Assembly: GCA_021108075.1 (NCBI GenBank)
Contig: JAIORP010000068.1
Location: forward strand, 10,594-74,593
Length of the DNA stretch: 64,000 bases
Origin: Candidatus Omnitrophota bacterium
GTDB taxonomy: Bacteria > Omnitrophota > Gorgyraeia > Zapsychrales > Zapsychraceae
Reading direction: 5' to 3'
Each line of letters begins with the position of its first letter. The first letter of the stretch is position 1. The notes beneath the pieces are model-generated. The model worked only from the letters and a program-made list of their open reading frames with translations, did no database searches and was not told the origin of the DNA. The translations under genes and the position numbers were made by a program. This document shows positions 46,109 through 61,673 of the stretch, one piece after another.

Positions 46109-47260
46109 AATTTGCAATATAGCTTGACGAGAACATAACGAATCTATAAGCTGAATACAATGAACGCTATTAAAAGCTCGACGTATTCAACATATGAGGT
46201 TCGAGAGAGAGCCGTTAAAGCTGTGCTATTGGGGCAACAAAAGGTAGCTGTCGCTAAAGCATATCAGGTTGACTACTCTACACTGTTTCGTTGGTGCCAA
46301 CGTTATGAAGGCACTAAAAAATTTTCAGCATTAGCACGTCAGCCTGGTAGCGGACGTCCTAATCTTTTAGATATTCAAACACGAGAAAATTTTCTTAAAA
46401 TTATTACTCAGCCAGCCTCTGAATTTGGATATGAAACTGACTTCTGGACATGTCGCAGGTTAATGCAAATTACTGAACAACGATTAAAGATTAAGGTTTC
46501 TAAGCCAACAATGTGGCGGATATTACGCGATATAGGTTTAACTTACCAAAAACCTGAACGCCGATATTTTGAAACTAATGATAAACTACGAAAAAAATGG
46601 CTTCGTTATGAAGTCCCAAAGATTAAGCGTTCTGTAAAAAAATATCGAGCCATTCTCTATTTTCAGGATGAGTCACATATTTCTTTGACGACGGTATTAG
46701 GAAAGACATGGGCTCCAAAAGGTCAAACGCCAATGCAACGAGTTACTGGTAATCGCGGTGGTTTTGCGGCTATGTCAGCAATTAGCCAAGTTGGAAAATT
46801 AATTTTTCGACTTCATCAAAAACGCATTACTTCTGTAGAAGTTATTGATTTTCTTAAACAGATGCTTAAGCATCATAAATATCGAAATGTAGTAGTGGTC
46901 ATGGATCAAGCTAGACCACATGTATCAAAGAAAACACAAGCATTTATCAAAGAACAGAAAAGATTGCATGTTTTTTATTTGCCATCTCGTTCTCCGGATT
47001 TGAATCCAGATGAACAGGTTTGGAATCATTTGAAACATCAAGAACTCAAAGGCAATGCATCCAGAACAAAAAAAGAACTTAAAAATTTAACCAATAGGAA
47101 GTCCCGAAATCCAGAATTACTAAATGGTATTTTCTTTAGATCCTGCATGGCAAGCTTCTTAAACTAAGCAACCTGTAAATATTTCTCGTCGGATTCTTAA
47201 TAGCGTTCTCTATTTTCAACGTCTTTTTAATTTCTCCTCCGTCGAGGCATATTGCAGATT
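46109..47260 (+). mobile_element. IS630-family insertion sequence (about 1.15 kb) with imperfect terminal inverted repeats
   Basis: Left TTTGCAATATAGCTTGACGAG. Right, as reverse complement, ATCTGCAATATGCCTCGACGGAG. Encloses the transposase ORF. Confidence 0.75.
46160..47167 (+). CDS. IS630-family (Tc1/mariner-like DDE) transposase
   Basis: N-terminal HTH region and DDE core (QDESHISL, MDQARPH, PSRSPDLNPDEQVW). Confidence 0.9.
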   Translation: MNAIKSSTYSTYEVRERAVKAVLLGQQKVAVAKAYQVDYSTLFRWCQRYEGTKKFSALARQPGSGRPNLLDIQTRENFLKIITQPASEFGYETDFWTCRRLMQITEQRLKIKVSKPTMWRILRDIGLTYQKPERRYFETNDKLRKKWLRYEVPKIKRSVKKYRAILYFQDESHISLTTVLGKTWAPKGQTPMQRVTGNRGGFAAMSAISQVGKLIFRLHQKRITSVEVIDFLKQMLKHHKYRNVVVVMDQARPHVSKKTQAFIKEQKRLHVFYLPSRSPDLNPDEQVWNHLKHQELKGNASRTKKELKNLTNRKSRNPELLNGIFFRSCMASFLN

Positions 47261-47367
47261 TTTTGAAATTATCTATAACACAATAAAAAGATAACAACTC
47301 GCTCCATCGGGCAGTCCTGCGCCACCTTCGTCGGCTTGTTCTGCCGATGAGCTCAAGGCGTTATATT

Positions 47368-47609: not shown

Positions 47610-49661
47610 ATGTCGATTAATCCTCTTGGCAATATAAAGGCAGAAAATGATCATATAATGCTAGATGCAGCTTTTTATGATACTCAAGAATATAATTCCC
47701 TTATCGAAGACTCTGCTCATCGCATAGTCATCGGTAGACGTGGGACAGGAAAAAGTGCTTTATTTTATAGGCTTCAGAAGCATTGGGGTCATGAAAAAAA
47801 GTCGAATATAATAATTTTATCTCCAGGTGAAACTTATATTATCGGAATTCGTTTTTTTATTAATTGTTTTGGCGACAATCCTTCATATTTAAGAGCTGCT
47901 TGTAAAATTCTTTGGGAGTATGCAATTTTAAATGAAATTATTATAAATTTAGTGCAGGAATATAAGATAAAAAGTGAAACATTATTAAATGATTTGAACT
48001 CTTTCAGAAGTAACTGGGTTAAAGGAGGAAGCAATATTGCATCAAGATTATATTTTCTTTTACAAAATAAATTGAATATTAAAGAGCCAGCTGAAGTAAA
48101 AATAGCCAACTTAACGCGAACTTTAGAAATTAGTAGGGTAAGAAATTTAGTTGCGGACTCTTTTAAATTTTCAAGATATAAATATCGTATAATATCAGAT
48201 CGCTTAGATGAGGGATATGAACCGGATGATAGGGGTGTTGCAATAATCAGCGGATTACTAAGTGCTTTAGATATAGTAACATCATCAATAGAGAGTGTCT
48301 CGTCTGTTACATTTTTAAGAGATAATATTTTTCGTGCCGTGCAACGTTGTGATCCGGATTATTCGAGAAATATCGAAGGTGACATTTTGCGAATACATTG
48401 GGATGAATATCATTTGTTTAATATGATATGTAACCGTATAAGGAAGTCTTTTAAGATATCTCGTGAGCAGAATCTTGTAACCTGGAATAAGGTTACAGCA
48501 AAAGGTGTTACTGGTAAAGAAGGATTTAGAAAATGTCTTCGACAAACATTATATCGTCCTCGTGATTTGTTAGTGCTATTAAATAATGCATTTAACTCCG
48601 CATTGTCTCATAAAAGGAATGAAATAGTTGACGAGGATATTGAATTATCAGCAAAAGACATATCATGTTCACGACTAGATGATCTCAAAAAAGAATACAA
48701 ATCTGTATTACCAGGTTTGGAAGAAATTATTAAGATATTTTCCGGAGGAAGTCCAAAATTTATAGTTTTAGAAGCTAATAAGTTAATGCAGTCTTTGTTT
48801 GATTTGGATGATGTTAATTCTCTAGCTAGACAAACATTAGCAATTATGCAATCACCTTCAGAAGTCTTGAGGATGCTTTTTAGTATCGGGTTTATTGGAA
48901 TTTTAAATAAGGATTCATCTTGTTACGTCTACTGTCATGACGGAAAAGAACCGGATGTCTCAATAGATGAAAAAGCAAATATATTAATACATCCCTGTTA
49001 TTGGATAGCATTGAATTTGCATAATGTCGATTTAGAAGAAGAAATTCGTGATGAGATCCATGATGAATATGATATTGAAGTATGTTCTGAAACTCCTGAG
49101 ATACGTAGTAAAAAAATAGGTCAATTGATTTCAGAATTGAGTTTAATAGACGAAGGAAAAGAACACGCTTCAATGTTTGAGGATTGGTGTTTAAAGGCCA
49201 TACGGATTATTTTTGCTAAAGGTATTGTTAATGTTGAACTTCATCCTAATAAAAATTTAACGCAAAGAAGGGATGTTGTAGGTCGAAATACTGGTGAAAC
49301 GAATGCGTGGAGAAGGATTCTAAATGATTTTAAAGTAAGGCAGGTTATATTTGAAATTAAGAATTATTCGAAAGACCTAAGCGGAGATGAGTATAGGCAA
49401 ATGCTATCATATCTTACTAATGGTTATGGAAAGCTAGGTTTTATAGTCAAGAGAGGAAGTGATGAAACTTTGAGGAAAGGCAAAGAACTGAGGTGGGCCA
49501 AAGAGATCTATGATAAGCATGACAAACGTATTGTTGTTAAATTAACAGACAGTTTTATAGTGCGTTGTCTTTCAAAATTAAGAAATCCTCAGAAACATGA
49601 TGCTCCAGATAAACAACTAAGTTCTCTTTTAGATAATTATCAACGGAGATATCTTAGCTGA
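47610..49661 (+). CDS. P-loop NTPase fused to C-terminal PD-(D/E)xK (restriction-endonuclease-like) domain; candidate single-gene defense protein
   Basis: Walker A VIGRRGTGKSA near the N-terminus. The C-terminal 150 aa have a D...(E-x-K) pattern (RRDVVG ... IFEIKNYSK). Cargo of cassette 1. Confidence 0.7.
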   Translation: MSINPLGNIKAENDHIMLDAAFYDTQEYNSLIEDSAHRIVIGRRGTGKSALFYRLQKHWGHEKKSNIIILSPGETYIIGIRFFINCFGDNPSYLRAACKILWEYAILNEIIINLVQEYKIKSETLLNDLNSFRSNWVKGGSNIASRLYFLLQNKLNIKEPAEVKIANLTRTLEISRVRNLVADSFKFSRYKYRIISDRLDEGYEPDDRGVAIISGLLSALDIVTSSIESVSSVTFLRDNIFRAVQRCDPDYSRNIEGDILRIHWDEYHLFNMICNRIRKSFKISREQNLVTWNKVTAKGVTGKEGFRKCLRQTLYRPRDLLVLLNNAFNSALSHKRNEIVDEDIELSAKDISCSRLDDLKKEYKSVLPGLEEIIKIFSGGSPKFIVLEANKLMQSLFDLDDVNSLARQTLAIMQSPSEVLRMLFSIGFIGILNKDSSCYVYCHDGKEPDVSIDEKANILIHPCYWIALNLHNVDLEEEIRDEIHDEYDIEVCSETPEIRSKKIGQLISELSLIDEGKEHASMFEDWCLKAIRIIFAKGIVNVELHPNKNLTQRRDVVGRNTGETNAWRRILNDFKVRQVIFEIKNYSKDLSGDEYRQMLSYLTNGYGKLGFIVKRGSDETLRKGKELRWAKEIYDKHDKRIVVKLTDSFIVRCLSKLRNPQKHDAPDKQLSSLLDNYQRRYLS

Positions 49662-51635: not shown

Positions 51636-51769
51636 CAGTCACCTCTGCCCTCGTTTAGCCGCTAAGAGGCCCCTTTATATAAACTACGGAAAAAGTTGTA
51701 GACGCTGTTCCTATATTTGTGTTGCAGATATAGGTGCACATAAGATACGGGGTAGGCAAGGATGATATT

Positions 51770-51922
51770 GTGACCTGCCCCAACTAGTTGCTCCAGAATT
51801 TGTGAGAGACCGATGGTTGATGGAACTATCCTAGGTTTCATATAGATTTTATTTTGGGACAGGATTATTAAAATCCCCCTAATATGTTAATAAACAGGTT
51901 CTAAACTTGTCTAGCCATCCCC
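51770..51922 (+). repeat. cassette trailer repeat, copy 2, ending in CCATCCCC|G
   Basis: Near-identical to 49728-49880. Followed by a tRNA-3'-like remnant and a copy of the post-tRNA terminator (51923-51965). Confidence 0.85.
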
Positions 51923-52034
51923 GTTTTTTTAAAAGCCCAAATTATTCATTTGGGCTTTTTTTTAGGGGGAACCCAAGCAAAATGGCAAAGCCATTCTTGC
52001 CCGGGTGTGTCAAAATATCCTATTTTGACTGCCC

Positions 52035-52464
52035 CGCCATTTAACCCGAGTTCGTTTAACGACGAGCTCGGGCTTTTTGTCGACGACAACCCTCTCCTTT
52101 AAATTCTCATTTAGGATTACTTTCAAACTTTCTGCTGTGCCATCAATGACTACATTTTGCTACATTTTACCCTTCCAAATGGCACCAAAATGGCACCTCT
52201 TTTTTCAATTTCTTCTTATCGCCTAAAATCAGCATCAAATGTCAAAATATAGATCGCCATTACAATGTTAGCCAGGTTTTGGTTAGTGGTAAATCTTGTC
52301 ATCAGTGCGTATAAACTAATATGGCTTGATATTCAATCAACTGACTTTTTGGGACACCCTGCGACGAGTCAAGTCATTGACATAATTTAGATGAGAGACT
52401 AGAATGTTTTTATGTCTTTTTTTGGGGGGGGGGATAACATTGGATATCAATATCCCGTGATATA
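52035..52464 (+). repeat. cassette leader repeat, copy 3
   Basis: Terminator 52045-52078, conserved core, then the promoter. G10 tract at about 52427-52436. Confidence 0.85.
52377..52405 (+). promoter_or_regulatory. consensus sigma70-like promoter (TTGACA-17-TAGAAT), leader copy 3
   Basis: TTGACA 52377-52382. TAGAAT 52400-52405. Confidence 0.6.
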
Positions 52465-52655
52465 CGGAAAACCCTGATATGTGATGTTAGCCAGCAAAAG
52501 CGACCTATCAACGATGTCTCTACGACAAAAACAGCATTATTTTGATATAAAATAAAAAGAGGGACTGGCTTTTTAGTGAGTCCTAAAATATTTAACGGAA
52601 AACCGTACATTATATGTTATGTTTCAAGAATCACTAATCAAATTAAGGAGTAAAA

Positions 52656-53669
52656 ATGGCTGAAGATAAAAATCAAAAGAAAGATGAAGTTGTAAAAACC
52701 GGAAATCCGCTAGTGTTTATAAGTCATGACACTAGAGATGCTAAACTCGCCGAAGCCTTTAGCGGACTTCTAAAAAGTGTTAGTGCTGGTGTTTTGAAAT
52801 CGTTCAGAACATCAGATAGAAAAGGGAATCAAGGAATTGAATACGGAGTCGAATGGTATCCCGAAATCATAAAGAATATTCAAAACGCTTCTGACGTTGT
52901 TTGCCTTCTTACAGAGAGAAGTATAAATAGGCCTTGGATTCTATTTGAAGCAGGAATGGCAAAAGGGAAGCTTGAAACTCCTATTTTAGGTGTAGCGTTA
53001 GGCATATCTTTGAAAGACGCATCATCTGGTCCGTTTGCTCAATTTCAGAATTGTGGAGATGATGAAGAATCTTTAACTAAATTAGTCTTTCAATTGGTAG
53101 ATCGTATCCCCAATTCAGAACCAGACGAAGAAACGATAAAGTTTCAGGTTGGCAAATTCAAAGAATCTATTGCAAAAATATTAAAAGCCAAGAACAAAGA
53201 CGCAAAACCTGAATCTTCAGAATTATCAAGTAGAGATAATTCATCGGCAAAACTCTTTGAAGAAATTAAGGTTATGTTTCAAGATCTACCGTCAAGAATT
53301 GAAAGTAATATGAATCCTGAATTACGTAGCAGAAAAAGACGTCGCTTTCATCCAATGATGATGGAAGAAATGATGCATATGAGTAAAAACAGACATATTG
53401 GAATAATGATGGCGCTTAGTCTTTTCAAAGAACCGATGCCTTGGCTGTATGAAATTGGCATGGAAACCATTAGGACGATTAAAACAGGAAAAACGAAAGC
53501 AGAAAAGAAAAGGGCATTTTCAGAGTTCCAAGAAATAGTTGAAATGTCCACTCGTCATCCAATGATGCGTGAATTTTTTATGGATTCAAAAGATGACTAT
53601 ATGCTTTTTAGAGAATTGCCTGAGGTGCTATCAGAAAGTTTTTATAGATTAATGATTGAAGAAAAATAA
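52656..53669 (+). CDS. TIR-domain protein with Met/His-rich C-terminal domain of unknown function
   Basis: N-terminal VFISHDTRDAKLAEAF...VVCLLTERSINRPWILFEAG fits the bacterial TIR (TIR_2-like) pattern. The C-terminal 200 aa have no recognisable family. Low GC. Confidence 0.65.
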   Translation: MAEDKNQKKDEVVKTGNPLVFISHDTRDAKLAEAFSGLLKSVSAGVLKSFRTSDRKGNQGIEYGVEWYPEIIKNIQNASDVVCLLTERSINRPWILFEAGMAKGKLETPILGVALGISLKDASSGPFAQFQNCGDDEESLTKLVFQLVDRIPNSEPDEETIKFQVGKFKESIAKILKAKNKDAKPESSELSSRDNSSAKLFEEIKVMFQDLPSRIESNMNPELRSRKRRRFHPMMMEEMMHMSKNRHIGIMMALSLFKEPMPWLYEIGMETIRTIKTGKTKAEKKRAFSEFQEIVEMSTRHPMMREFFMDSKDDYMLFRELPEVLSESFYRLMIEEK

Positions 53670-53813
53670 AAAAACATAACAAATCACTACACTGGATTTT
53701 TACTCCGCTGCGCTCCGTAAAAACCAGTGAGTTCAAGCGTTGGGCCTCATTAACGATGGCCTGCATAGAACATCCGAACCACAATCTTGGCACATGATGC
53801 GAGAATGAATTAA

Positions 53814-54641
53814 ATGACAAAAACTAAGACCGATGGCAAGAAGCCCATATTCCCTCTTGGTCCGCACCCACTTCCACCACACCCTTGTGGCATTCACTTA
53901 ACTGCCATGGACCAAAACACTGCGTACGATGTTCCGCATCGAGTGCTCCAGGATGAACATTTGCAACCTGAGGAGTTCACTGTCGCAATGACCCAATGGA
54001 TCGTGACTCACCACCTTAGCCCCGAAGCCATTGAGCGAGATCGAATACGTTGTGAAGCTTTGACGAGACAGGGTCTTGTCGACCCTGTGCAGCGGTTCCC
54101 TATTAACTTGAGCACGCAGAAAGGCAATTGGGCAGAGGTATTGCTCGCTGAGTATATCGCTGCATCGTGTGCTGTCAAAGTGCCAGTGTATCGTCTTCGT
54201 TACAACCCGAACGTGGATCAGTCAATGAAGGGGGACGATGTGCTTGCATTTGATCTCGATTCAAATCCTGTTCGTGTGTTGGTCGGTGAAGCTAAGTTTA
54301 GATCGACTCCTTCAAAAGCAGTAGTGGAGGAGCTTGTTGATGCACTGGTTAGATCACACTCTGGGAATATTCCTGCATCTTTGCAATTCGTTGCGGATCG
54401 CTTGTTTGATTCTGGGAACGACGAGTTGGGAGCGAAGGTCATGGCTTGCAATGGGCTATTTGCTCAGGGACGTCTGCAATTGGATTATGTTGGATTACTC
54501 GTAAGCACAAGGGTTGCTCATCGTCACATGGAGAGGAACGCTAAATCAAATGTTCGCCGTCTTGCCGTAATATCGCTCGGGCTATCGGACCCTGAGGGAA
54601 TTGTGACTGCATCCTATGTCAGGGCTGGTGAATACGTATGA
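53814..54641 (+). CDS. hamA: HamA-like (DUF1837-type, PD-(D/E)xK-like) Hachiman component
   Basis: About 275 aa with GDDVLAFDLD....LVGEAKFRS (D..D..E-x-K). ATGA overlap with a downstream DExH helicase. Abrupt rise in GC. Confidence 0.6.
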   Translation: MTKTKTDGKKPIFPLGPHPLPPHPCGIHLTAMDQNTAYDVPHRVLQDEHLQPEEFTVAMTQWIVTHHLSPEAIERDRIRCEALTRQGLVDPVQRFPINLSTQKGNWAEVLLAEYIAASCAVKVPVYRLRYNPNVDQSMKGDDVLAFDLDSNPVRVLVGEAKFRSTPSKAVVEELVDALVRSHSGNIPASLQFVADRLFDSGNDELGAKVMACNGLFAQGRLQLDYVGLLVSTRVAHRHMERNAKSNVRRLAVISLGLSDPEGIVTASYVRAGEYV

Positions 54642-57600
54642 GTCTCTCAGCCCAGAATGCTCGGATTTTGATGCAGTCAATGCGCACACAGAGAATCCAA
54701 AATCTCGTAGCACAATCTAAGGCCAAGCAGGTGTTGAGAGAGGTGCGTGAAGTCCCCGCAAATTTTCCAAGGTTTGAATCAGACCTTGATGATCGGGTTA
54801 CGTTTATTGCATATGGGCTGTTGGCCGCCGGTTGCAGTCTGATTGAACGGAACGAAACAGCCGAGGGCTATATGGAGTTGTATGCCGCCGCAGATATACT
54901 TGAGTCGGCACACAGAACAGAGATTGCGAACCATCAGGCGAGTGCGCTGCACTGCCTGATCGGTGCTATGGCATTCTATGCTTGCGGCCAATATTCAAGG
55001 GCATTTGTACTGATCAAAAACTTAGAAGCGGTCACACCTTCGGCTGGTATCATTGCTTCATTCTTGCGGAAGGATCGGACACGCCTAATCGACAAACTAA
55101 ATGAGGTGTTACTTGCTCCAGTTCCGGTCTTTAACGAAAAAAGTCAGTTCGACGATTGGGCTCTTACAATTTGTGTGGCTCGCTCATTATCAATAGCGAC
55201 GGAACACGCCATCTCGGGCCAGCCGGAACTTCTCGCGATTGCGGACACGATCCTTCGTGACGCAATGACGATCAGCGTAGGAGCTTCACATCCGGCCTTT
55301 TGGTGGCTTGCTCGCCTGTTGCGGTTGATGCTCAAGGACTATGGAAACGGGGCTTTGTGGTCTGTGCTGCCACCTTTCTTTGGGCCGGAAGGCAAGGCAC
55401 AGGTGGACAGCTATGTGAAGCTCCTTGCCTTCCAAAAGCCACCAGTGATTGAGCTGTGGCAGTCTCAGACGGTCGCTCTACAGCTTGCCCTAAATTCGCA
55501 GAATCGAGGTGGTGTAATCAACCTTCGAACCAGCGCAGGAAAAACCAGAGTCGCGGAACTGGCGATCCTCCACACGCTCTGGGCTGATCCAAACGCAAAG
55601 GTTTTATATCTCGCACCCTTCCGGTCGCTCGCCTTCGAACTGGAGAGAACCTTCAGCAAAACCTTGGCACCATTGGGATACTCCGTTTCGCACCTTTATG
55701 GAGGTTCACGTTTCAGTGGTGTGGATCGTGAGCTGTTTAATGAAGGCCACATCACCATCGCCACACCCGAAAAAACCAAAGCCATGCTGCGGGCTTCGCC
55801 GGAACTTTTCAAGCCAGTGAAACTTGTTGTGATCGATGAAGGCCATCTTCTCGGGGGCAATGAACGGAACGTTCGAAACGAAATGTTCCTCGAATACTTG
55901 CGCCTTCTGGCTCGCGTGCGTGGCGCACGAATACTGTTACTTTCGGCTGTCCTTCCGAACGCTGAGGACTTGGCAGCTTGGGTTGGCGGCGCTCCTGATG
56001 CTTTGGTGAAGTCGAGTTGGAAGCCATCAGCCGAGAGACGAGGAATTATTCAATGGAGAAAGACAGGTGTTACTATCGAATGGTTGGGAGACGAACGCTG
56101 CTTCAATCCTCATTTTATCGAGTTCAAGAAGGTGCCTCATGTAACACCCAAAGGAAAAATTAAATCCCGCGCCTTTCCCAAGAACAAGACGGAGGCCGTA
56201 GCGGCAACAGCCACCCGACTTGCAGCACTTGGTCCTGTCTTGATATTCGCGGGACAAGCTCAGTGGGTGCCGTCCATGGTGCGGGCGGTGCTGCTTTCTC
56301 TCGGTCCTGAAGCACCGGTCCATCGGTGGCCTGATACAGAATGGCGGCTTCTTGATGCAGTTTGCAGAGAGGAACTTGGCGATGATTCGTTGGAAATCAC
56401 AGCAGCACGTTTGGGAGTCGTGTGCCACAGTAACAAACTACCTCCTCATGTTCGGATTGCCTTGGAAAAGCTCATGGCAAAGCATCCTCCAAGGATAATT
56501 GTCGCAACTACGACGCTGGGACAAGGGGTGAACATAAGGATTTCCTCCGTCATCGTAGCTACAACTTTCATCGGTGCTAATTTGCAGATCAGCAAACGTG
56601 ATTTTTGGAATATTTGTGGACGCGCTGGAAGAGCGTTTGTAGATGGCGAAGGCAAGATACTGTTCGCAATTGACGGAACCCGTAGCGCTTGGAACGTCAA
56701 AACCGATGAGGCAACTGCTGCAAACTATTTTGATATCGTTAATATAGACCAGGTGGAGAGCGGCTTACTTCATGTGGTTAAGTATATGCATACTATTGCC
56801 GCTAATGTTGGAATTCCCTTCGCAACCCTGTTGGAGATGGCAGCGAACGACAATTTTGATCGATGCGGTGAAAATAGAGTAAACGTAGAAGGAGTCATGG
56901 ATTGGATTGACGATCAGTTGTTGGCGTTGCATGTCGAATACAAGGGTGATGCCCCCGAGCTAACCGTCGACTGGGTGGATGATGCATTTAGAGATTCACT
57001 TGCGGCCATTCAAGAGAGGGCCAGACGGGAACCTGACCATGATGACCAATTGATAAACTTCTTGAAGGCTCGGGTTGCAGGTGTGCAACGGAAGGTTCCT
57101 TCGCCCGAGGCGCGACGAGCGGTTATTTCATCAGGTCTTCCATTGTCAGTCGGAATTTTAGCATTTAATCAGTTGGATGTGTTTCGCGAGATGGTGGACC
57201 GCTATTTAGCCTCCGAAACTGACGCCGACGCGCTCGGCGAGATGGTCACGGAGTTTGAGACTTGGGCTCGTCAACATGCGAAGATCATTGTCAAAGGGAT
57301 GCCCGAACAGGAGCAGTTGGACAAAATTCGCCCTCAATGGCTTGATGGGGGATCATTGAGAAAGATCGTCGAAACGTGTGGGGATGATGCCACTGGTATT
57401 TGCACCGGTCTCTATGGCTACCAGCTTCCTTGGCTTTTCCACTCGGTTGCCCAGAAACTCGACAAGCTGGCCGAAGAGAACCGTATAGAGGCGTTTGCCA
57501 AGGTGGGCCTTCTCGTGGAACTCGGCTTACCAACGGAAGCCGCTGCCAAAGTCTTCTTGGCGGGAGTGCGATCCCGCGTAGCGGCTGTTGAGTTAAGCAG

Positions 57601-58003
57601 GTTTATAACCAATCCCGCTGCAAGCGTCTCGAGGATTCGAACGGCTTTGCTGGATTCTGCCACTGTGACAGCACTTTCAGCTTCGGTTTCAGCGTCGACT
57701 CTCGAATGGCTTCATCTTCTTTCGGCAGAGCACGGGACTAAAGCCGTTTCACCTCCGCAGTGCGCAAGATTTCGGTTGGAAGCACCCAATGAGGTGAAAA
57801 CTCTTCATGCGCGGCAACTATCGCCGGGTAGTTCCATTGTTCTATGTTCGACCGACACTCGGTTTAAGGTTGAAGTGAAAGCGACCGAACAATTGCCCTT
57901 CGACAATTTTGTAAACGACCCCCGTTTTATCTTCGCCCGAGATGGCGACGTTTGGGTTCAACAGTGCCGAGACCCCCGTATCGATTATTTAAGTATGGGA
58001 TGA
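54638..58003 (+). CDS. hamB: HamB-like SF2 DExH-box helicase (Hachiman component)
   Basis: Motif I TSAGKTR. Motif II VIDEGH. Helicase C-like block TTTLGQGVNI. 1121 aa. Confidence 0.7.
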   Translation: MSLSAQNARILMQSMRTQRIQNLVAQSKAKQVLREVREVPANFPRFESDLDDRVTFIAYGLLAAGCSLIERNETAEGYMELYAAADILESAHRTEIANHQASALHCLIGAMAFYACGQYSRAFVLIKNLEAVTPSAGIIASFLRKDRTRLIDKLNEVLLAPVPVFNEKSQFDDWALTICVARSLSIATEHAISGQPELLAIADTILRDAMTISVGASHPAFWWLARLLRLMLKDYGNGALWSVLPPFFGPEGKAQVDSYVKLLAFQKPPVIELWQSQTVALQLALNSQNRGGVINLRTSAGKTRVAELAILHTLWADPNAKVLYLAPFRSLAFELERTFSKTLAPLGYSVSHLYGGSRFSGVDRELFNEGHITIATPEKTKAMLRASPELFKPVKLVVIDEGHLLGGNERNVRNEMFLEYLRLLARVRGARILLLSAVLPNAEDLAAWVGGAPDALVKSSWKPSAERRGIIQWRKTGVTIEWLGDERCFNPHFIEFKKVPHVTPKGKIKSRAFPKNKTEAVAATATRLAALGPVLIFAGQAQWVPSMVRAVLLSLGPEAPVHRWPDTEWRLLDAVCREELGDDSLEITAARLGVVCHSNKLPPHVRIALEKLMAKHPPRIIVATTTLGQGVNIRISSVIVATTFIGANLQISKRDFWNICGRAGRAFVDGEGKILFAIDGTRSAWNVKTDEATAANYFDIVNIDQVESGLLHVVKYMHTIAANVGIPFATLLEMAANDNFDRCGENRVNVEGVMDWIDDQLLALHVEYKGDAPELTVDWVDDAFRDSLAAIQERARREPDHDDQLINFLKARVAGVQRKVPSPEARRAVISSGLPLSVGILAFNQLDVFREMVDRYLASETDADALGEMVTEFETWARQHAKIIVKGMPEQEQLDKIRPQWLDGGSLRKIVETCGDDATGICTGLYGYQLPWLFHSVAQKLDKLAEENRIEAFAKVGLLVELGLPTEAAAKVFLAGVRSRVAAVELSRFITNPAASVSRIRTALLDSATVTALSASVSASTLEWLHLLSAEHGTKAVSPPQCARFRLEAPNEVKTLHARQLSPGSSIVLCSTDTRFKVEVKATEQLPFDNFVNDPRFIFARDGDVWVQQCRDPRIDYLSMG

Positions 58004-58138
58004 CTATAGGGGAGATTTTAGGGACATGCCTGAATGTTGAAATGTGATGTAGCAAAAATATTACAAACATTGCCCAACAAGACAATCCAGCGGGCGTCTT
58101 ATAGCCGCCGCTGATTTTGGCGTTATGAGATACAAATA

Positions 58139-58546
58139 ATGTTGAAAATTTATAATAGATTTGTCCCCATGGGCATCATCATTTGGTGTGTCCTTTTTGT
58201 AATTATAAATTTGTTCGTAATAATAAATTCAATTTATCAAGCATTTCGAGCAAGTGTGCCCCACTTTCTGTTTGCGCTCATTCCTGTAGTTTATGTAATT
58301 GTTTTGCTGGGATTTATGATTTTACAAGTATTGTTGGGTGGTAATGATTGCAGAAAATACTCTATTTATTGGTGCTTTTTTTGTTTGCTGGGAATTTCTG
58401 GAAGGTTTTGGGCGGGGCCACCATCGGATTTACTGGAATTAAGTATAACGAATGTATTAAAATTCTTGCCTATCATTGTATTTAATGTTAGTTTTATTAT
58501 TTATTTTTTGTTGCCAAGTATAAAAAAGTATTTTAGAAATCATTAA
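58139..58546 (+). CDS. small hypothetical membrane protein (4 predicted TM helices)
   Basis: Hydrophobic ORF in an AT-rich region. Confidence 0.4.
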   Translation: MLKIYNRFVPMGIIIWCVLFVIINLFVIINSIYQAFRASVPHFLFALIPVVYVIVLLGFMILQVLLGGNDCRKYSIYWCFFCLLGISGRFWAGPPSDLLELSITNVLKFLPIIVFNVSFIIYFLLPSIKKYFRNH

Positions 58547-58617
58547 TCTCATAACCAGCAGATTGAGCGGGCGTCAGGACGCCGCTCATCTGCCAGCGTT
58601 ATGAGAAATTAAAAATT

Positions 58618-58956
58618 ATGAATCACCGTATTCAAATACTTCGTGACGTATACAAATTTTACAATGAGAAAGGCCCTGGCAACTATGGGCTTGCACACAC
58701 ATTTCCAAGCTTTACAACGGGAGATGAAAGATATTTGGCAGCTCTCAACCAACTTCTACGAGAAAAACTGATCCTCGGTGTTTCTATGCCGGACAATAGT
58801 CATGAAAAAGATCAAATGGCGATTGGGCTTAACCCAGATCGTCTTAACAATATCAGAAAGGAATTGTCTCCATGGCACATGGATCCTAAGATAGTTATAC
58901 CTATTATTGTTGGAATGCTAGGCCTCATATGGGCAGTTGTCAGCAAGTTGTTTTAA
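58618..58956 (+). CDS. small hypothetical protein with C-terminal TM anchor
   Basis: ORF with a C-terminal hydrophobic helix (IVIPIIVGMLGLIWAVV). Confidence 0.4.
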   Translation: MNHRIQILRDVYKFYNEKGPGNYGLAHTFPSFTTGDERYLAALNQLLREKLILGVSMPDNSHEKDQMAIGLNPDRLNNIRKELSPWHMDPKIVIPIIVGMLGLIWAVVSKLF

Positions 58957-59155
58957 AAGGTCTACCCAGCCGTTCAACATCAAGAGGATAAACGGAGGAT
59001 AGCGGGGTGAGCCTGTTGAATGTTGGAACTAATTGACAAAAAAGATATAGAAATTAAGAGGCGGATTAGCTTTCGGTGGAAAATATGGAAAAATTATATG
59101 TTCCTCGACAAACGAAATAAAAAAGAATAAAATAAAAAGTCATAACGAAGCAATC

Positions 59156-59203
59156 CACCTGACCTTTTCCCGCGCCAAAATCGGTATGGGAAAAGGTCAG
59201 GTG
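59156..59203. repeat. 16-bp perfect inverted repeat overlapping the annotated start of the 59186 ORF
   Basis: CACCTGACCTTTTCCC-16 nt-GGGAAAAGGTCAGGTG followed by ATTTTTA. Confidence 0.6.
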
Positions 59204-59698
59204 ATTTTTATGTTAGAAGGCACCATGGTAAAAATAGAAAACAGGGTTGAGAAATATGCTTTTTTGAGGTTGTATGATCATGACCTTGAAATGGCAATAC
59301 AAACGATAATGGTTCTACGCAGATATCGTAGAAAAGATGTTAGATTTCCATTGTTAAGGGATATCGTTGTTACATATTGCAGGCCATTTACAGAGAGTCG
59401 AGGGGACGGAATACACAAAGATTTTTTTGGAGTAAAAAAATTCGAAAACCCTGAGATGAAATCGTTTCACAAAAAGCTTTTGAATTTAAGAAGTGAACTT
59501 TTTGCGCATACAGATTTTACATTTAAAAAGCCACAAATAGCAAATTGGTCCAACGGCGACAAAAAATGGTTTCCCATGGCATTCAAGGGTTTTAGCTACG
59601 AAAAGCTTGATAGCGAATTACCTAATATAATCAATTTTATAAAATACGTACAAAAAGATTTAACCAAACAAATTAATGAATATGAGAAAAGCTTCTAA
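59186..59698 (+). CDS. hypothetical protein
   Basis: ORF. ATG 59186 lies inside a 16-bp perfect hairpin, so ATG 59210 is the more likely start. Confidence 0.4.
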   Translation: MGKGQVIFMLEGTMVKIENRVEKYAFLRLYDHDLEMAIQTIMVLRRYRRKDVRFPLLRDIVVTYCRPFTESRGDGIHKDFFGVKKFENPEMKSFHKKLLNLRSELFAHTDFTFKKPQIANWSNGDKKWFPMAFKGFSYEKLDSELPNIINFIKYVQKDLTKQINEYEKSF

Positions 59699-59783
59699 CA
59701 AGGCTTTTGCAGCGGAGCGCAAAAAGCCGCGCCCGCTGAAAAGCGACGTTGCAGGAAAATAAACAATTAAAAAGGTTGGATAG

Positions 59784-61673
59784 ATGCCGGGACTGCTTGG
59801 AATTATTGATCATCAGAAAAAGTTGGGCGTCAGCAGGATTGAGGAATTATTAACGCTAATGTCTCGTTCCCTGCAGCATGAAGATTTTTATCACACCGCA
59901 CAGTACGTCCGTGAAGAATTCGGCATAGCCAGAATTAGTAAACAGAAGGCGCGAGACGTTCGCGATAAATTTCCTGCCCCCCAGGATAATAATCTTTTAT
60001 TTTTTTACGGTGATCTCTATGTTTTTAATGGAAAGGATGTATTGGGCGATGCTTATCTGAACGATTTCCATAGGGACCTAACCCGGAATTTCAGCAAAAC
60101 AGTCTCGAATATCGATGGAGACTTCCTTTTTGTCTATTACAATTCTCAAGAGAAGAAATTATGCATCGTGAACGACATTACGTCGTCTATACCTGTTTAT
60201 TATGCTGTTGTAGACGAGGTCCTGTATTTTGCCCCAGAAGTAAAGGCCCTGCTTAAAATTCCTAGTCTTGATAAACAGATCAATTTTACAGGCCTGGCCC
60301 AGTTTCTTTCTTCAGGCATGGTCTATTCAGGCAATACTTATTTCAACAGTATCAAAGCTTTGATGATGTCGACCGTCATGTCTGTGCACTTTCCTTCCCA
60401 TAAAATAGTCCAAGCCCCATACTGGTCTTTTAATTTTGATGAAACGGTTAAAGATAAAGGGATGTCCTGTTACGCAGAGCCCCTCGCTGACCTGATTAAT
60501 AAAGCGATCAAGAGACGCGTTCGGGATAATACGGCTAAGAGAATAGGCGTCTTTCTTAGTGGTGGATATGATTCGAGGACGATCTTAGCTGCCTGCCTTC
60601 AAAATAATGTCCAGGTTGAAACGATCACCCACGGAGTCGAGCAACAGAAGCCTTTTTCAGACGCGCTTATCGCTAAGGAATTGTCAGATAAGCTCGGTAT
60701 AAAAAATCATTTTCATAAATTGATCCCAAACGACATGCAACACCATCTTCAGGATGTGGTCTATCGTACTGACGGATTAACGGATCAAGTGGGCAATTAC
60801 CCCAGCGGCCTGGACAATCAACGCCAGATGAGAGAAAGTTTTGATGTGGTTCTACGCGGTGAGGAATTATTCGGCTGGCAGGGGGGCGTATTCAATGAAG
60901 ACGATGCCTTGGCAAGTTTTAACCTTGTCCCTTTGCCGAACAAGTACCGTTCTATTTTAGGTGAGAAACATTTCCCTGGAATGAGGCAGGCGTCAGAGGC
61001 TGGTCTAAAGAATATTTCAAAAAGATGTGGTTTAAAGGATTTAATGAATCGAAAAGATCTTTATGTCTTTGCGCAAGGCGTTCCACATTTCTGGGGCATT
61101 TTAAATTATTTTAAGAATATGGTCATTGATATCCGAAATCCATTGTGGGATAAAGACCTCTTAACCTTTATAGCTAAATTACCTCCTCAATACAGGATTT
61201 ACAGAAATCTCTTCCGCAGAACTGTCCGGACGGCATATCCCGACATATTCAGCATAGAAGGAGCCAAGAGTTCTAATCTTCCCAATTGGACAGAGAGTTA
61301 TAGGGATCATCCGGATTTGCGTGCGTATATCCGCAGCAATTTAATTGATTCTTCTAATCCCTTTATTGAAGAATTGATAAATAGAGAAGGCCTTAATATT
61401 TTTGTTTCAAAATTTGAAGAGGCAGCTTTAAATTGCGCGCAAAAGTCAACAGGGTTGTCTGTGAAGGCATTTCAATCCTCTTTCAGATGGAAAGACCTTT
61501 TACCCACAGATTTTAAAACCTTTTTGGCCCACCTCATCAAGAGTAACTATATTCCTTATAAGATGGCATTGCCTTTATTTAAAAATAAAAAGATAACCGT
61601 GAGTTGGTTAAGGGACGATGTTGTTATGATGAGGTTATTGGTTTTGAAGCATTGGAGTGATTTGTTTATTTAG
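59784..61673 (+). CDS. asparagine synthetase B-like amidotransferase homolog lacking the N-terminal Cys nucleophile
   Basis: N-terminus is MPGLLGI where AsnB has MCGI. AsnB-like N-domain (DGDFLFVYYN) and PP-loop VFLSGGYDSR. Confidence 0.75.
   Translation: MPGLLGIIDHQKKLGVSRIEELLTLMSRSLQHEDFYHTAQYVREEFGIARISKQKARDVRDKFPAPQDNNLLFFYGDLYVFNGKDVLGDAYLNDFHRDLTRNFSKTVSNIDGDFLFVYYNSQEKKLCIVNDITSSIPVYYAVVDEVLYFAPEVKALLKIPSLDKQINFTGLAQFLSSGMVYSGNTYFNSIKALMMSTVMSVHFPSHKIVQAPYWSFNFDETVKDKGMSCYAEPLADLINKAIKRRVRDNTAKRIGVFLSGGYDSRTILAACLQNNVQVETITHGVEQQKPFSDALIAKELSDKLGIKNHFHKLIPNDMQHHLQDVVYRTDGLTDQVGNYPSGLDNQRQMRESFDVVLRGEELFGWQGGVFNEDDALASFNLVPLPNKYRSILGEKHFPGMRQASEAGLKNISKRCGLKDLMNRKDLYVFAQGVPHFWGILNYFKNMVIDIRNPLWDKDLLTFIAKLPPQYRIYRNLFRRTVRTAYPDIFSIEGAKSSNLPNWTESYRDHPDLRAYIRSNLIDSSNPFIEELINREGLNIFVSKFEEAALNCAQKSTGLSVKAFQSSFRWKDLLPTDFKTFLAHLIKSNYIPYKMALPLFKNKKITVSWLRDDVVMMRLLVLKHWSDLFI

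Follow-up and report, generated by a model that had tools for sequence, protein, structure and literature searches.

Related Systems and the Locus

ThsB of Thoeris, the TIR effectors of CBASS and Pycsar, SpbK, and the TIR-APAZ protein of SPARTA share a TIR fold with a catalytic glutamate and the chemistry of NAD+ cleavage. The gene considered here, referred to as TIR-CTD, encodes an N-terminal TIR domain joined to a C-terminal domain (CTD). It is found in a 64,000-nucleotide stretch of DNA from a Candidatus Omnitrophota bacterium (GenBank assembly GCA_021108075.1, contig JAIORP010000068.1, positions 10,594 to 74,593 of the forward strand; hereafter the window), upstream of the Hachiman genes hamA and hamB. 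The public record of the source contig is ENA ERZ26872899 NODE_2 (168,659 bp). The nearest validated relative of the protein belongs to the three-gene 2TM-1TM-TIR system of phage P2_AC1 (TM, transmembrane), modeled in PADLOC as PDLC03016 “TIR-TM” and in DefenseFinder as Rst_2TM_1TM_TIR. This system has been validated against lambda, LF82_P8, and P2, and its TIR protein is proposed to signal to the membrane proteins (Rousset et al. 2022, PMC9122126).

Compact phage-defense systems are also carried by integron cassettes (BRiCs), one of which, Brc236, is a TIR cassette that has been validated (Kieffer et al., Science 2025; bioRxiv 10.1101/2024.07.02.601719). Defense cassettes in sedentary chromosomal integrons have been attributed to Darracq et al. 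2025 and Getz et al. 2025 in a passage of a further preprint (bioRxiv 10.64898/2026.03.17.712381).

The TIR-CTD gene is a complete 1.12-kb integron cassette (52617-53739): one ORF that lacks a promoter, a ribosome-binding site of its own, and an attC. With chances put slightly above even, the product of the gene would be a self-contained abortive-infection immune protein, that is, an autonomous sensor-effector depleting NAD+ on phage infection. This is the best-supported reading because of the invariant glutamate of the TIR domain, the linker and amphipathic helix that follow it, the occurrence of the CTD on three different heads, and the inheritance of the gene as a lone cassette.

The TIR Domain

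An earlier sequence-only reading of the window, made without database searches, had singled out this ORF. The ORF exists, encodes 337 amino acids (aa) behind a strong Shine-Dalgarno sequence, and contains the C-terminal peptides quoted in that reading. Its product is predicted to be a soluble cytoplasmic protein of two domains, an N-terminal TIR domain and a C-terminal helical CTD. The protein has no TM helix (maximum 19-residue Kyte-Doolittle score of 1.06) and no signal peptide.

The same reading had placed a TIR domain at the N-terminus, and profile and structural matches agree with it. Pfam PF13676 (TIR_2) matches aa 20-131 with E=2e-6 and 28.7 bits (gathering score 28.0), and nearly all of the 120 listed homologues carry a precomputed assignment to this family. 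PADLOC TIR models match as well, and the strongest profile matches are all to defense TIRs. The best PADLOC match is PDLC03016 (E=3.5e-14, 51 bits, aa 60-308; 2.9e-9 with the TIR half alone). This model is identified as the TIR protein of the P2_AC1 system, since the AC1 protein itself matches it with E=2.7e-118 and 393 bits, and the two genes upstream of the AC1 TIR gene match the PADLOC 2TM-TIR and 1TM-TIR models. The window protein is predicted from these matches to be related to the AC1 TIR as a distant subfamily. The sequence-only reading had mentioned Thoeris and CBASS in connection with bacterial TIRs; the nearest validated relative is the P2_AC1 protein and not one of these. No system would be called by PADLOC at the window gene, despite the match to the TIR-TM model, because the partner genes are missing.

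The AF2 model shows the alternating beta-alpha order of elements (E20-23, H26-41, E46-49, H62-76, E80-85, H94-105, and E110-114). Its top Foldseek matches in the PDB are SPARTA TIR-APAZ, BtpA, AbTir, and ThsB, with a probability of 1.0 and E-values (~1e-3) that are weak because the model is mediocre. The motif R92-P-W94-I-L-F-E98-A-G is invariant in 68 genome-derived and 48 database homologues. Its W-x3-E spacing is presumably that of the catalytic glutamate of TIR NADases, an equivalence drawn from motif spacing and not from superposition, and E98 would be a glutamate of the catalytic type. The sequence-only reading had allowed that the region might fail TIR profiles or adopt a non-TIR fold lacking this glutamate; TIR profiles match it, and W94-x3-E98 is invariant.

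Mean pairwise identity across phyla is 73.5% for the TIR domain, versus 36.6% for the CTD. The TIR domain is the more conserved of the two in all 67 comparisons with the window protein, and in extreme cases, such as that of an Omnitrophota and an Oceanobacter copy, the identities are 96% and 54%, respectively. The helix and linker that connect the two domains are the least conserved part of the protein (28.9% identity) and are disordered in the AF2 model.

The C-Terminal Domain

The CTD is a real, widespread domain without annotation and is not unique to the window protein. The sequence-only reading had described an unrecognized C-terminal domain of 200 aa; the region is indeed unmatched, but its folded length is ~142 aa. 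Structure prediction, suggested in that reading as a check, gives a confident all-helical fold when aa 196-337 are modeled alone with a diverse alignment (pLDDT 88.3, pTM 0.71, ~eight helices). Foldseek finds nothing significant for this model in the PDB (best E=0.74) or among viral predicted structures (best E=0.65), and a CTD hidden Markov model has no significant match to PDB sequences. Likewise, 67 diverse CTD members have no significant match in Pfam, with NCBIfam returning none either, and a PHROGs search is without significant result. One CTD of the 67 has a weak antitoxin-family match (E=0.0042), which is not significant.

A search with the CTD alone against 1.84 billion cluster representatives (clustered at 50% identity) retrieves 441 clusters with E<=1e-3, of which 200 reach E<=1e-10. 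The domain is always C-terminal and is fused to TIR-type heads throughout. A few other fusions (to ATP-grasp, FMN reductase, and RT-like sequences) look like chimeric contigs. Three TIR-type heads carry the CTD: the window-type, the AC1-type, and a head resembling the CBASS effector TIR. In the contexts examined, no partner gene accompanies any of them. The last is represented by P0130 (341 aa) and P0226 (348 aa), in which the CTD follows a TIR-like head whose motif reads ADLT..NPNVFYELA. No Pfam family matches this head; it is hit by the PADLOC CBASS “Effector TIR” model (E=5e-9) and by phrog_3634 (E=2e-51); one contig is available for the type and is too short to show gene context.

The first helix of the CTD, LFEExKxMxxxLP (200-212), is invariant. 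It is followed by a basic patch, RKRRRF (aa 226-231; family consensus RRRRRF), and then by the near-invariant H232-P233. W263 is invariant within a near-invariant P262-W263-x-Y265, and a second HPMM motif is located at 300-303. In one family member, P0243 (387 aa), the most conserved CTD helix is tandemly duplicated (KLFEEIKIMFQD...YFEEIKIMFQD), suggesting that the LFEExKxM-type helix is a discrete functional element.

The domain had been described as rich in methionine and histidine. This is correct for methionine, which makes up 13.0% of aa 200-337 versus 1.1% of the N-terminal half (family mean 7.1%, range 2.4-16.3%), but not for histidine (2.9% of the C-terminal part). Metal binding by the methionine-rich motifs was considered and rejected, given the variation of methionine across the family and the background level of histidine. 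A HEPN identity, prompted by the R-x5/6-H-like RRRFHP and by the top Foldseek match to Csx1-Crn2, was dropped because that match lacks significance (E=0.74, TM 0.36), confidence in the motif region is low, and the histidine is not invariant.

The AC1-type head defines a sister family that numbers at least 1,005 proteins, with a length of ~342 aa (e.g., P0316 from Teredinibacter turnerae, P0317 from Desulforhopalus, and P0349 from Chlorobaculum). It shares its architecture and length with the window protein, and the CTDs are homologous (hhalign 99.5% to P0212; phmmer E down to ~1e-17). The head, however, is of the AC1 lineage, P0212 matching the PADLOC TIR-TM model with E=1e-52 versus 3.5e-14 for the window protein. 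TM partners are absent from the sister family in three independent contexts; thus, in both TIR lineages the CTD accompanies genes that stand alone, a correlation that for the sister family rests on few contexts. The relative that does have membrane partners, AC1, has a different tail. P0212 was rejected as a clean hybrid exemplar, its copy on contig L090 being a rearranged fragment without the first ~78 TIR positions; full-length members of the sister family take its place.

The Integron Cassette

The sequence-only reading did not include the cassette nature of the gene, which is evident from its boundaries (Table 1). Nucleotide homology to the copies on L086, L087-L089, L001, and L006 begins 40 bp ahead of the ATG, at 52615/52616, and ends 3-13 bp past the stop codon, and the flanks of those cassettes are unrelated to those of the window. 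The upstream flank of the L086 cassette is another attC of the same type. Directly 3′ of the stop codon, the window has the layout R''-L''...L'-R' of an attC, whose hairpin (CACTGG(A)TTTTTAC...GTAAAAACCAGTG) contains a bulged base and whose G 53739 is the end of the cassette.

The 5′ end of a cassette is complementary to its own R'' in five of five consecutive cassettes of the window, the pairs being GTTATGT with ACATAAC, GTTGGGC with GCCCAAC, GTTATGA with TCATAAC (twice), and GTTAGAA with TTCTAAC. By an estimate made here, the four variable positions would match by chance in ~1/256 of cassettes. Among the homologue loci, an attC-like site is found at the stop codon in ~18 of 79, and the exact complement of 5′ end and R'' occurs in 10 of 75 versus ~1.75 expected from shifted-window controls. 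In the sister family, the Teredinibacter turnerae gene (L105) is a textbook integron cassette. Because the TIR gene is its own cassette, it can be said to have spread as a solitary gene among distant phyla.

At least five co-oriented cassettes make up an array (52617-59748) that contains the TIR gene, hamAB, and ORFs of 135, 112, and 162 aa, with the TIR cassette as the first recognizable one. The following unit, an asnB-like gene (59784-61673), has no matching R'' (CTGCAAC); thus, the array may end there. A sigma-70-type site upstream of the array could be a candidate Pc-like driver of its promoterless cassettes, judging from its sequence and from its position downstream of the terminator-like hairpin at 52045-52072. 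Promoter-like sites overall are not more numerous than in shuffled controls.

The Hachiman neighbor noted in the sequence-only reading is strongly confirmed, with both hamA and hamB detected by PADLOC, as is the independence of the TIR gene from it, which follows from the exact cassette and attC boundaries and from the presence of hamAB elsewhere without the TIR gene. A hamAB block (53739-58080) is shared at ~90% nucleotide identity with six contigs (L093-L098) that lack the TIR gene, on which hamAB adjoins resolvase, ParDE, Tn3, or IS21 genes. The block starts at 53739, the crossover G of the attC of the TIR cassette. Its other end is odd in that it falls just after R'' (GCCCAACAA) and not at the end of the attC; therefore, the hairpin parts of the attC differ between contexts. 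The window HamA falls into a 90%-identity protein cluster with proteins from Desulfobulbus and from Pseudomonadota metagenome-assembled genomes (MAGs). HamAB adjoins the TIR gene only in assemblies of this organism. The GC content is 35.6% for the TIR gene, 49.5% for hamA, 51.3% for hamB, and 41.3% for the whole window. The gene had been described as host-like and unlike hamAB in this respect; the latter is accurate, whereas its value lies somewhat below the window average.

Table 1. Coordinates of the TIR-CTD gene, its domains, and the surrounding cassettes in the window
Feature	Position	Strand	Remarks
Candidate sigma-70-type promoter	52377..52405	+	TTGACA-17-TAGAAT, 11/12 matches; ~210 bp upstream of cassette boundary
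5′ cassette boundary	52616..52622	+	G/TTATGT (R'-type core; slash, crossover point); exact reverse complement of own R'' ACATAAC
Shine-Dalgarno sequence	52645..52650	+	AAGGAG, strong; 5 nt before ATG; kept in relatives
TIR-CTD ORF	52656..53669	+	337 aa; NCBI MCD4779823.1, “TIR domain-containing protein”, Candidatus Omnitrophota MAG
TIR domain	52707..53123	+	aa ~18-156; Pfam, PADLOC, fold, conservation
GAA codon for E98	52947..52949	+	Invariant Glu of R92-P-W94-I-L-F-E98-A-G
Helix and linker	53124..53240	+	Long helix aa 158-182; low-complexity K/E/S-rich linker aa 183-195
CTD	53241..53666	+	aa 196-337, ~142 aa; all-alpha, ~eight helices
attC of TIR cassette	53674..53745	+	R'' ACATAAC 53674-53680; imperfect hairpin; R' G(53739)/TTGGGC
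hamAB (Hachiman) cassette	53740..58122	+	4.38 kb; 5′ TTGGGC complementary to own R'' GCCCAAC 58072-58078; R' G(58122)/TTATGA
hamA	53814-54641	+	PADLOC
hamB	54638-58003	+	PADLOC
Cassette 3	58123-58598	+	135-aa ORF (58139-58546); R'' TCATAAC 58549-58555
Cassette 4	58599-59212	+	112-aa ORF; R'' TCATAAC 59140-59146
Cassette 5	59213-59748	+	162-aa ORF; R'' TTCTAAC 59693-59699, overlapping stop codon

Distribution and Genomic Context

The whole protein has 3,253 database homologues, of which the best 120 are full-length and 65-91% identical. They occur in Omnitrophota, Spirochaetota, Planctomycetota, Bacteroidota, Pseudomonadota, Desulfobacterota, and Cyanobacteriota, and the sole archaeal homologue is from a Bathyarchaeota MAG (55% identity). 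The distribution is patchy across phyla, is that of a horizontally transferred gene, and includes environmental MAGs without an animal host. No nucleotide homologue was found in E. coli genomes. Phage and plasmid collections yield distant TIR-only matches, with one exception: among the plasmids, a 2-Mb Ralstonia replicon carries a copy that is 54% identical.

Scanning one genome per species gave 80 homologue loci, the Bathyarchaeota MAG among them. Clustering of the flanking ORFs across them reveals no conserved neighbor, the largest cluster reaching 7 of 80 loci without a fixed position. The 146 nearest neighbors of at least 100 aa match 132 different Pfam families, many of them housekeeping and some of them defense or mobile genes. 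TM proteins account for 20-22% of the neighbors versus a background of 25%. In the window, no SIR2, SLOG, or Macro domain was detected by Pfam in the ten flanking proteins. The sequence-only reading had seen no partner and had named a consistent known partner elsewhere as evidence against a stand-alone protein; no recurrent neighbor exists in the 80 genomes or in the closest metagenomic relatives. The TIR-CTD gene is inherited as a solitary gene.

In two close relatives that belong to different phyla, a homologous 125-aa ORF with four TM segments (44% identity) lies ~120-160 bp upstream of the TIR gene: in a Planctomycetia genome (L002, 7497-7874) and in Paraglaciecola (L007, 7426-7803), where the TIR gene is split into two ORFs. 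It is probably a co-traveling neighboring cassette. As a hidden partner it was rejected, being present at 2 of 80 loci and leaving no remnant in the window.

Proposed Function and Alternatives

If TIR-CTD acts as an autonomous sensor-effector, the CTD, with its LFEExKxM helix past the flexible linker, would keep the TIR domains apart or inactive in the uninfected cell. Recognition of a phage-derived cue by the fast-evolving CTD would then release or assemble the TIR domains. These would hydrolyze NAD+, and the infected cell would be stopped before phage progeny are produced. The analysis establishes which domains are present, which residues are conserved, that no partner is conserved, how the cassette is organized, and that the gene is separate from hamAB. 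NADase activity, defense against phages, a sensing or autoinhibitory CTD, and the kind of trigger are inferred.

Several lines of evidence are consistent with such a role. The surroundings of the window gene and of its closest relatives are of a defense type, with Hachiman in the window, an SbcCD-like pair and an AAA_13 ATPase next to P0001 (91% identity), and MazEF next to P0005 (86% identity). Homology to the P2_AC1 TIR protein (E=3.5e-14) provides a further link to defense. In addition, integron mobility selects for self-sufficiency, which argues for an autonomous protein.

A wider proposal is possible, though held tentatively and at rather less than even probability. The CTD may be a new, dedicated phage-sensing and autoinhibitory module on at least three TIR-type head lineages. 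TIR-CTD would then be the smallest autonomous TIR immune receptor known (~1 kb, no partner), spread by integrons across more than ten phyla and archaea, its specificity diversified by rapid evolution or swapping of the CTD on a near-frozen head.

A number of observations weigh against an autonomous immune protein or against the assignments on which it is built. The TIR_2 match exceeds the gathering score by a narrow margin (28.7 versus 28.0 bits), and PDB sequence searches with the TIR half give no TIR match. The full-length AF2 model is mediocre (pLDDT 65.6, pTM 0.44); therefore, interdomain contacts are unreadable from it. Two home-made generic attC scans missed known sites and gave counts equal to those of shuffled controls. 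Since these scans are uninformative, the attC assignment is based on the logic of boundaries and complementarity, a calibrated attC model having no part in it. The window yields no integron integrase and has no large minus-strand ORF; tblastn of the window with IntI1 gave nothing, and Pfam on the three minus-strand frames of 51636-52655 detected no decayed integrase. The array is therefore CALIN-like within the window. The immediate neighbors in reference genomes are mostly non-defense genes, so guilt by association is weak beyond the closest relatives. The fast evolution of the CTD could reflect relaxed constraint or recombination and not an arms race. Finally, the literature searched holds no experiments on the TIR-CTD family, and the authors of the AC1 study propose signaling to membrane effectors and not lone action (PMC9122126).

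The main rival to the autonomous sensor-effector is a signal-generating TIR, which is judged unlikely. Here, the TIR would produce an NAD+-derived messenger, as does ThsB and as is proposed for the P2_AC1 TIR, to activate an effector elsewhere in the genome or in a neighboring cassette, such as the 135-aa ORF. It draws support from the precedent of AC1, the nearest validated relative, whose TIR belongs to a three-gene system and is proposed to signal to TM proteins. However, no homology to the CTD is detectable in the C-terminal half of AC1 (hhalign probability 0.2%), and the AC1-type sister family, which carries the CTD, also lacks TM partners. With tblastn, no homologue of the AC1 2TM and 1TM proteins was found in the window, and a single match in the 80 loci is at chance level (E=0.32). 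Nor do the ORFs flanking the gene in the window match the PADLOC models PDLC02978 (2TM) and PDLC02977 (1TM), the 1 kb upstream being ORF-less. The weak ThsB profile matches (E=1.9e-5) are in line with a messenger, as are the small hydrophobic, apparently multi-TM ORF two cassettes downstream of the TIR gene and the 4-TM ORF just upstream of it in L002 and L007. The latter, however, is confined to those 2 of 80 loci and has no homologue in the window, TM neighbors are not enriched near TIR homologues, and no neighbor of any kind is conserved. Moreover, reliance on an unlinked effector would make a cassette that moves alone between phyla useless. The AC1 precedent is thus set against the lack of a recurrent partner and the independent mobility of the gene.

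Integron arrays also carry toxin-antitoxin and many non-defense cassettes. A non-immune TIR-CTD would be a cassette toxin or addiction module, an NAD+-linked regulator in housekeeping or stress, or a secreted virulence factor of the TcpB/BtpA type, and is considered distinctly improbable. A toxin might be expected from such arrays and from the weak, non-significant antitoxin-family match of one CTD, yet no separate antitoxin gene recurs beside TIR-CTD. Against the non-immune reading stand the lack of a signal peptide or TM segment and the patchy, horizontal distribution across phyla, including environmental MAGs without an animal host. A non-immune role would suit both the TIR domain, which is unusually conserved for a defense gene, and the housekeeping character of most immediate neighbors in reference genomes. 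In contrast, Hachiman, MazEF, and SbcCD-like/AAA_13 genes surround the window gene and its nearest relatives, and the best profile matches are all to defense TIRs.

That the TIR gene is an accessory or upstream component forming a three-gene unit with HamAB is highly improbable and effectively refuted by the context data: the TIR gene and hamA are 145 bp apart on the same strand with no terminator predicted between them, so that they may be co-transcribed in this organism, but HamA or HamB adjoins the TIR homologue at 0 of 80 loci, six contigs carry ~90%-identical hamAB without the TIR gene, position 53739, where the shared hamAB block starts, is precisely the crossover G of the TIR attC, and GC differs (35.6% versus 50-51%).

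Other Features of the Window

The ~1 kb between an FkbM methyltransferase gene and the TIR cassette (51636-52615) contains no credible ORF. It harbors two strong terminator-like hairpins (~51937-51957 and 52045-52072), a G10 homopolymer (52424-52433), and an attC-like palindrome, GGATAAC...GTTAGCC (52432-52492), that is not above chance in the scan. In this kilobase, Rfam gives nothing beyond sub-threshold matches on the first terminator.

Among the downstream cassettes, the 135-aa ORF is strongly hydrophobic, with several TM-like stretches judged by eye. The 162-aa product (59210-59698) has a weak, non-significant Pfam HEPN_AbiU2 match (E=0.07). Its listed start at 59186 overlaps the preceding attC; therefore, the real start is probably 59210.

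Farther upstream, an IS630-type DDE_3 transposase gene (46160-47167) precedes a gene for a 683-aa P-loop ATPase of the Sll1717 family (47610-49661; NCBIfam NF047389, E=4e-77), in a segment with a GC content of 33-37%. The N-terminus of the ATPase has weak matches to PADLOC PDC-M36A (E=2e-7) and to an NCBIfam anti-phage equivalog, DS41_1, for which the score (E=1.5e-9) stays far below the cut-off. Just downstream of the transposase gene, on the opposite strand, is a 78-nt palindrome with attC-like ends, ATATAAC...GTTATCT (47289-47366, minus strand). All ORFs of at least 120 aa in the first 46 kb, and all credible genes after that, are on the plus strand.

Significance

The TIR annotation of the gene is already public, and integron-borne defense cassettes, one of them TIR-containing (Brc236), are established. 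Three aspects appear to be new. One is the definition of the CTD as a domain. Another is the recognition of two large TIR-CTD families without partners, which are related to 2TM-1TM-TIR yet distinct from it. The third is the spread of TIR-CTD as integron cassettes, here in Omnitrophota beside a Hachiman cassette. There is no conceptual surprise in this, because sensor-fused TIR effectors and integron defense cassettes are both established.

If the proposed function is correct, TIR-CTD would rank as a minimal TIR immune receptor, made of one polypeptide and regulated by a domain of a new type, and would lend itself to work on how TIR NADases are restrained and activated. It would offer a ready-made example of sensor/effector modularity because the same CTD is found on three TIR heads. 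The defense candidates gain a large unnamed family, with more than 3,000 sequences in the window family and at least 1,000 in the sister family. Hachiman and TIR as adjoining integron cassettes in an Omnitrophota genome also extend the view of integrons as defense libraries beyond Vibrio and clinical class 1 integrons.

Comparison with Known Systems

The AC1 and window TIR domains are 31% identical over 90 aa, and both have the PWIxFEAG motif. The proteins are of similar length (315 and 337 aa), and in both the TIR domain is followed by a helix of the form xxEExLxxS/Mxx. Beyond this point they diverge: the C-terminal ~100 aa of AC1 are not detectably homologous to the CTD, and BLASTP aligns the TIR domain only. 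AC1 requires, or in any case comes with, two upstream membrane-protein genes that the window gene lacks. Membership of the window gene in the 2TM-1TM-TIR system was rejected on the grounds of the absent partners and the non-homologous C-terminus. Both are borne on mobile elements, AC1 in a P2 prophage hotspot and not in an integron cassette.

Similarity to other TIR systems is more distant. Thoeris ThsB gives weak profile matches and a structural match, SpbK a weak profile match (E=1.5e-4) limited to aa 6-42, and SPARTA TIR-APAZ and AbTir structural matches to the TIR model. The window protein would be expected to share their chemistry, NAD+ cleavage. The partners that define Thoeris, CBASS, and SPARTA (ThsA, a cyclase, and an Argonaute, respectively) are absent at the window TIR gene, and the Thoeris arrangement of ThsB next to ThsA is not found in the window, with no neighbor conserved at the 80 loci. 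As a regulatory part, the CTD has no counterpart in Thoeris, CBASS, Pycsar, SpbK, or SPARTA.

In its genetic setting, the window gene resembles the integron defense cassettes. BRiCs and chromosomal defense cassettes are known from class 1 mobile or Vibrio integrons, whereas the window is from an Omnitrophota MAG, with no integrase detected in the window. An Acinetobacter plasmid TIR (H3) was rejected as a further integron case, not being in an integron. Like BRiCs, the window gene is a compact, promoterless single-ORF cassette with an attC. Both Brc236 and the window cassette contain a TIR domain. The window cassette also shares its array with a second defense system, Hachiman, as is seen in defense-cassette arrays.

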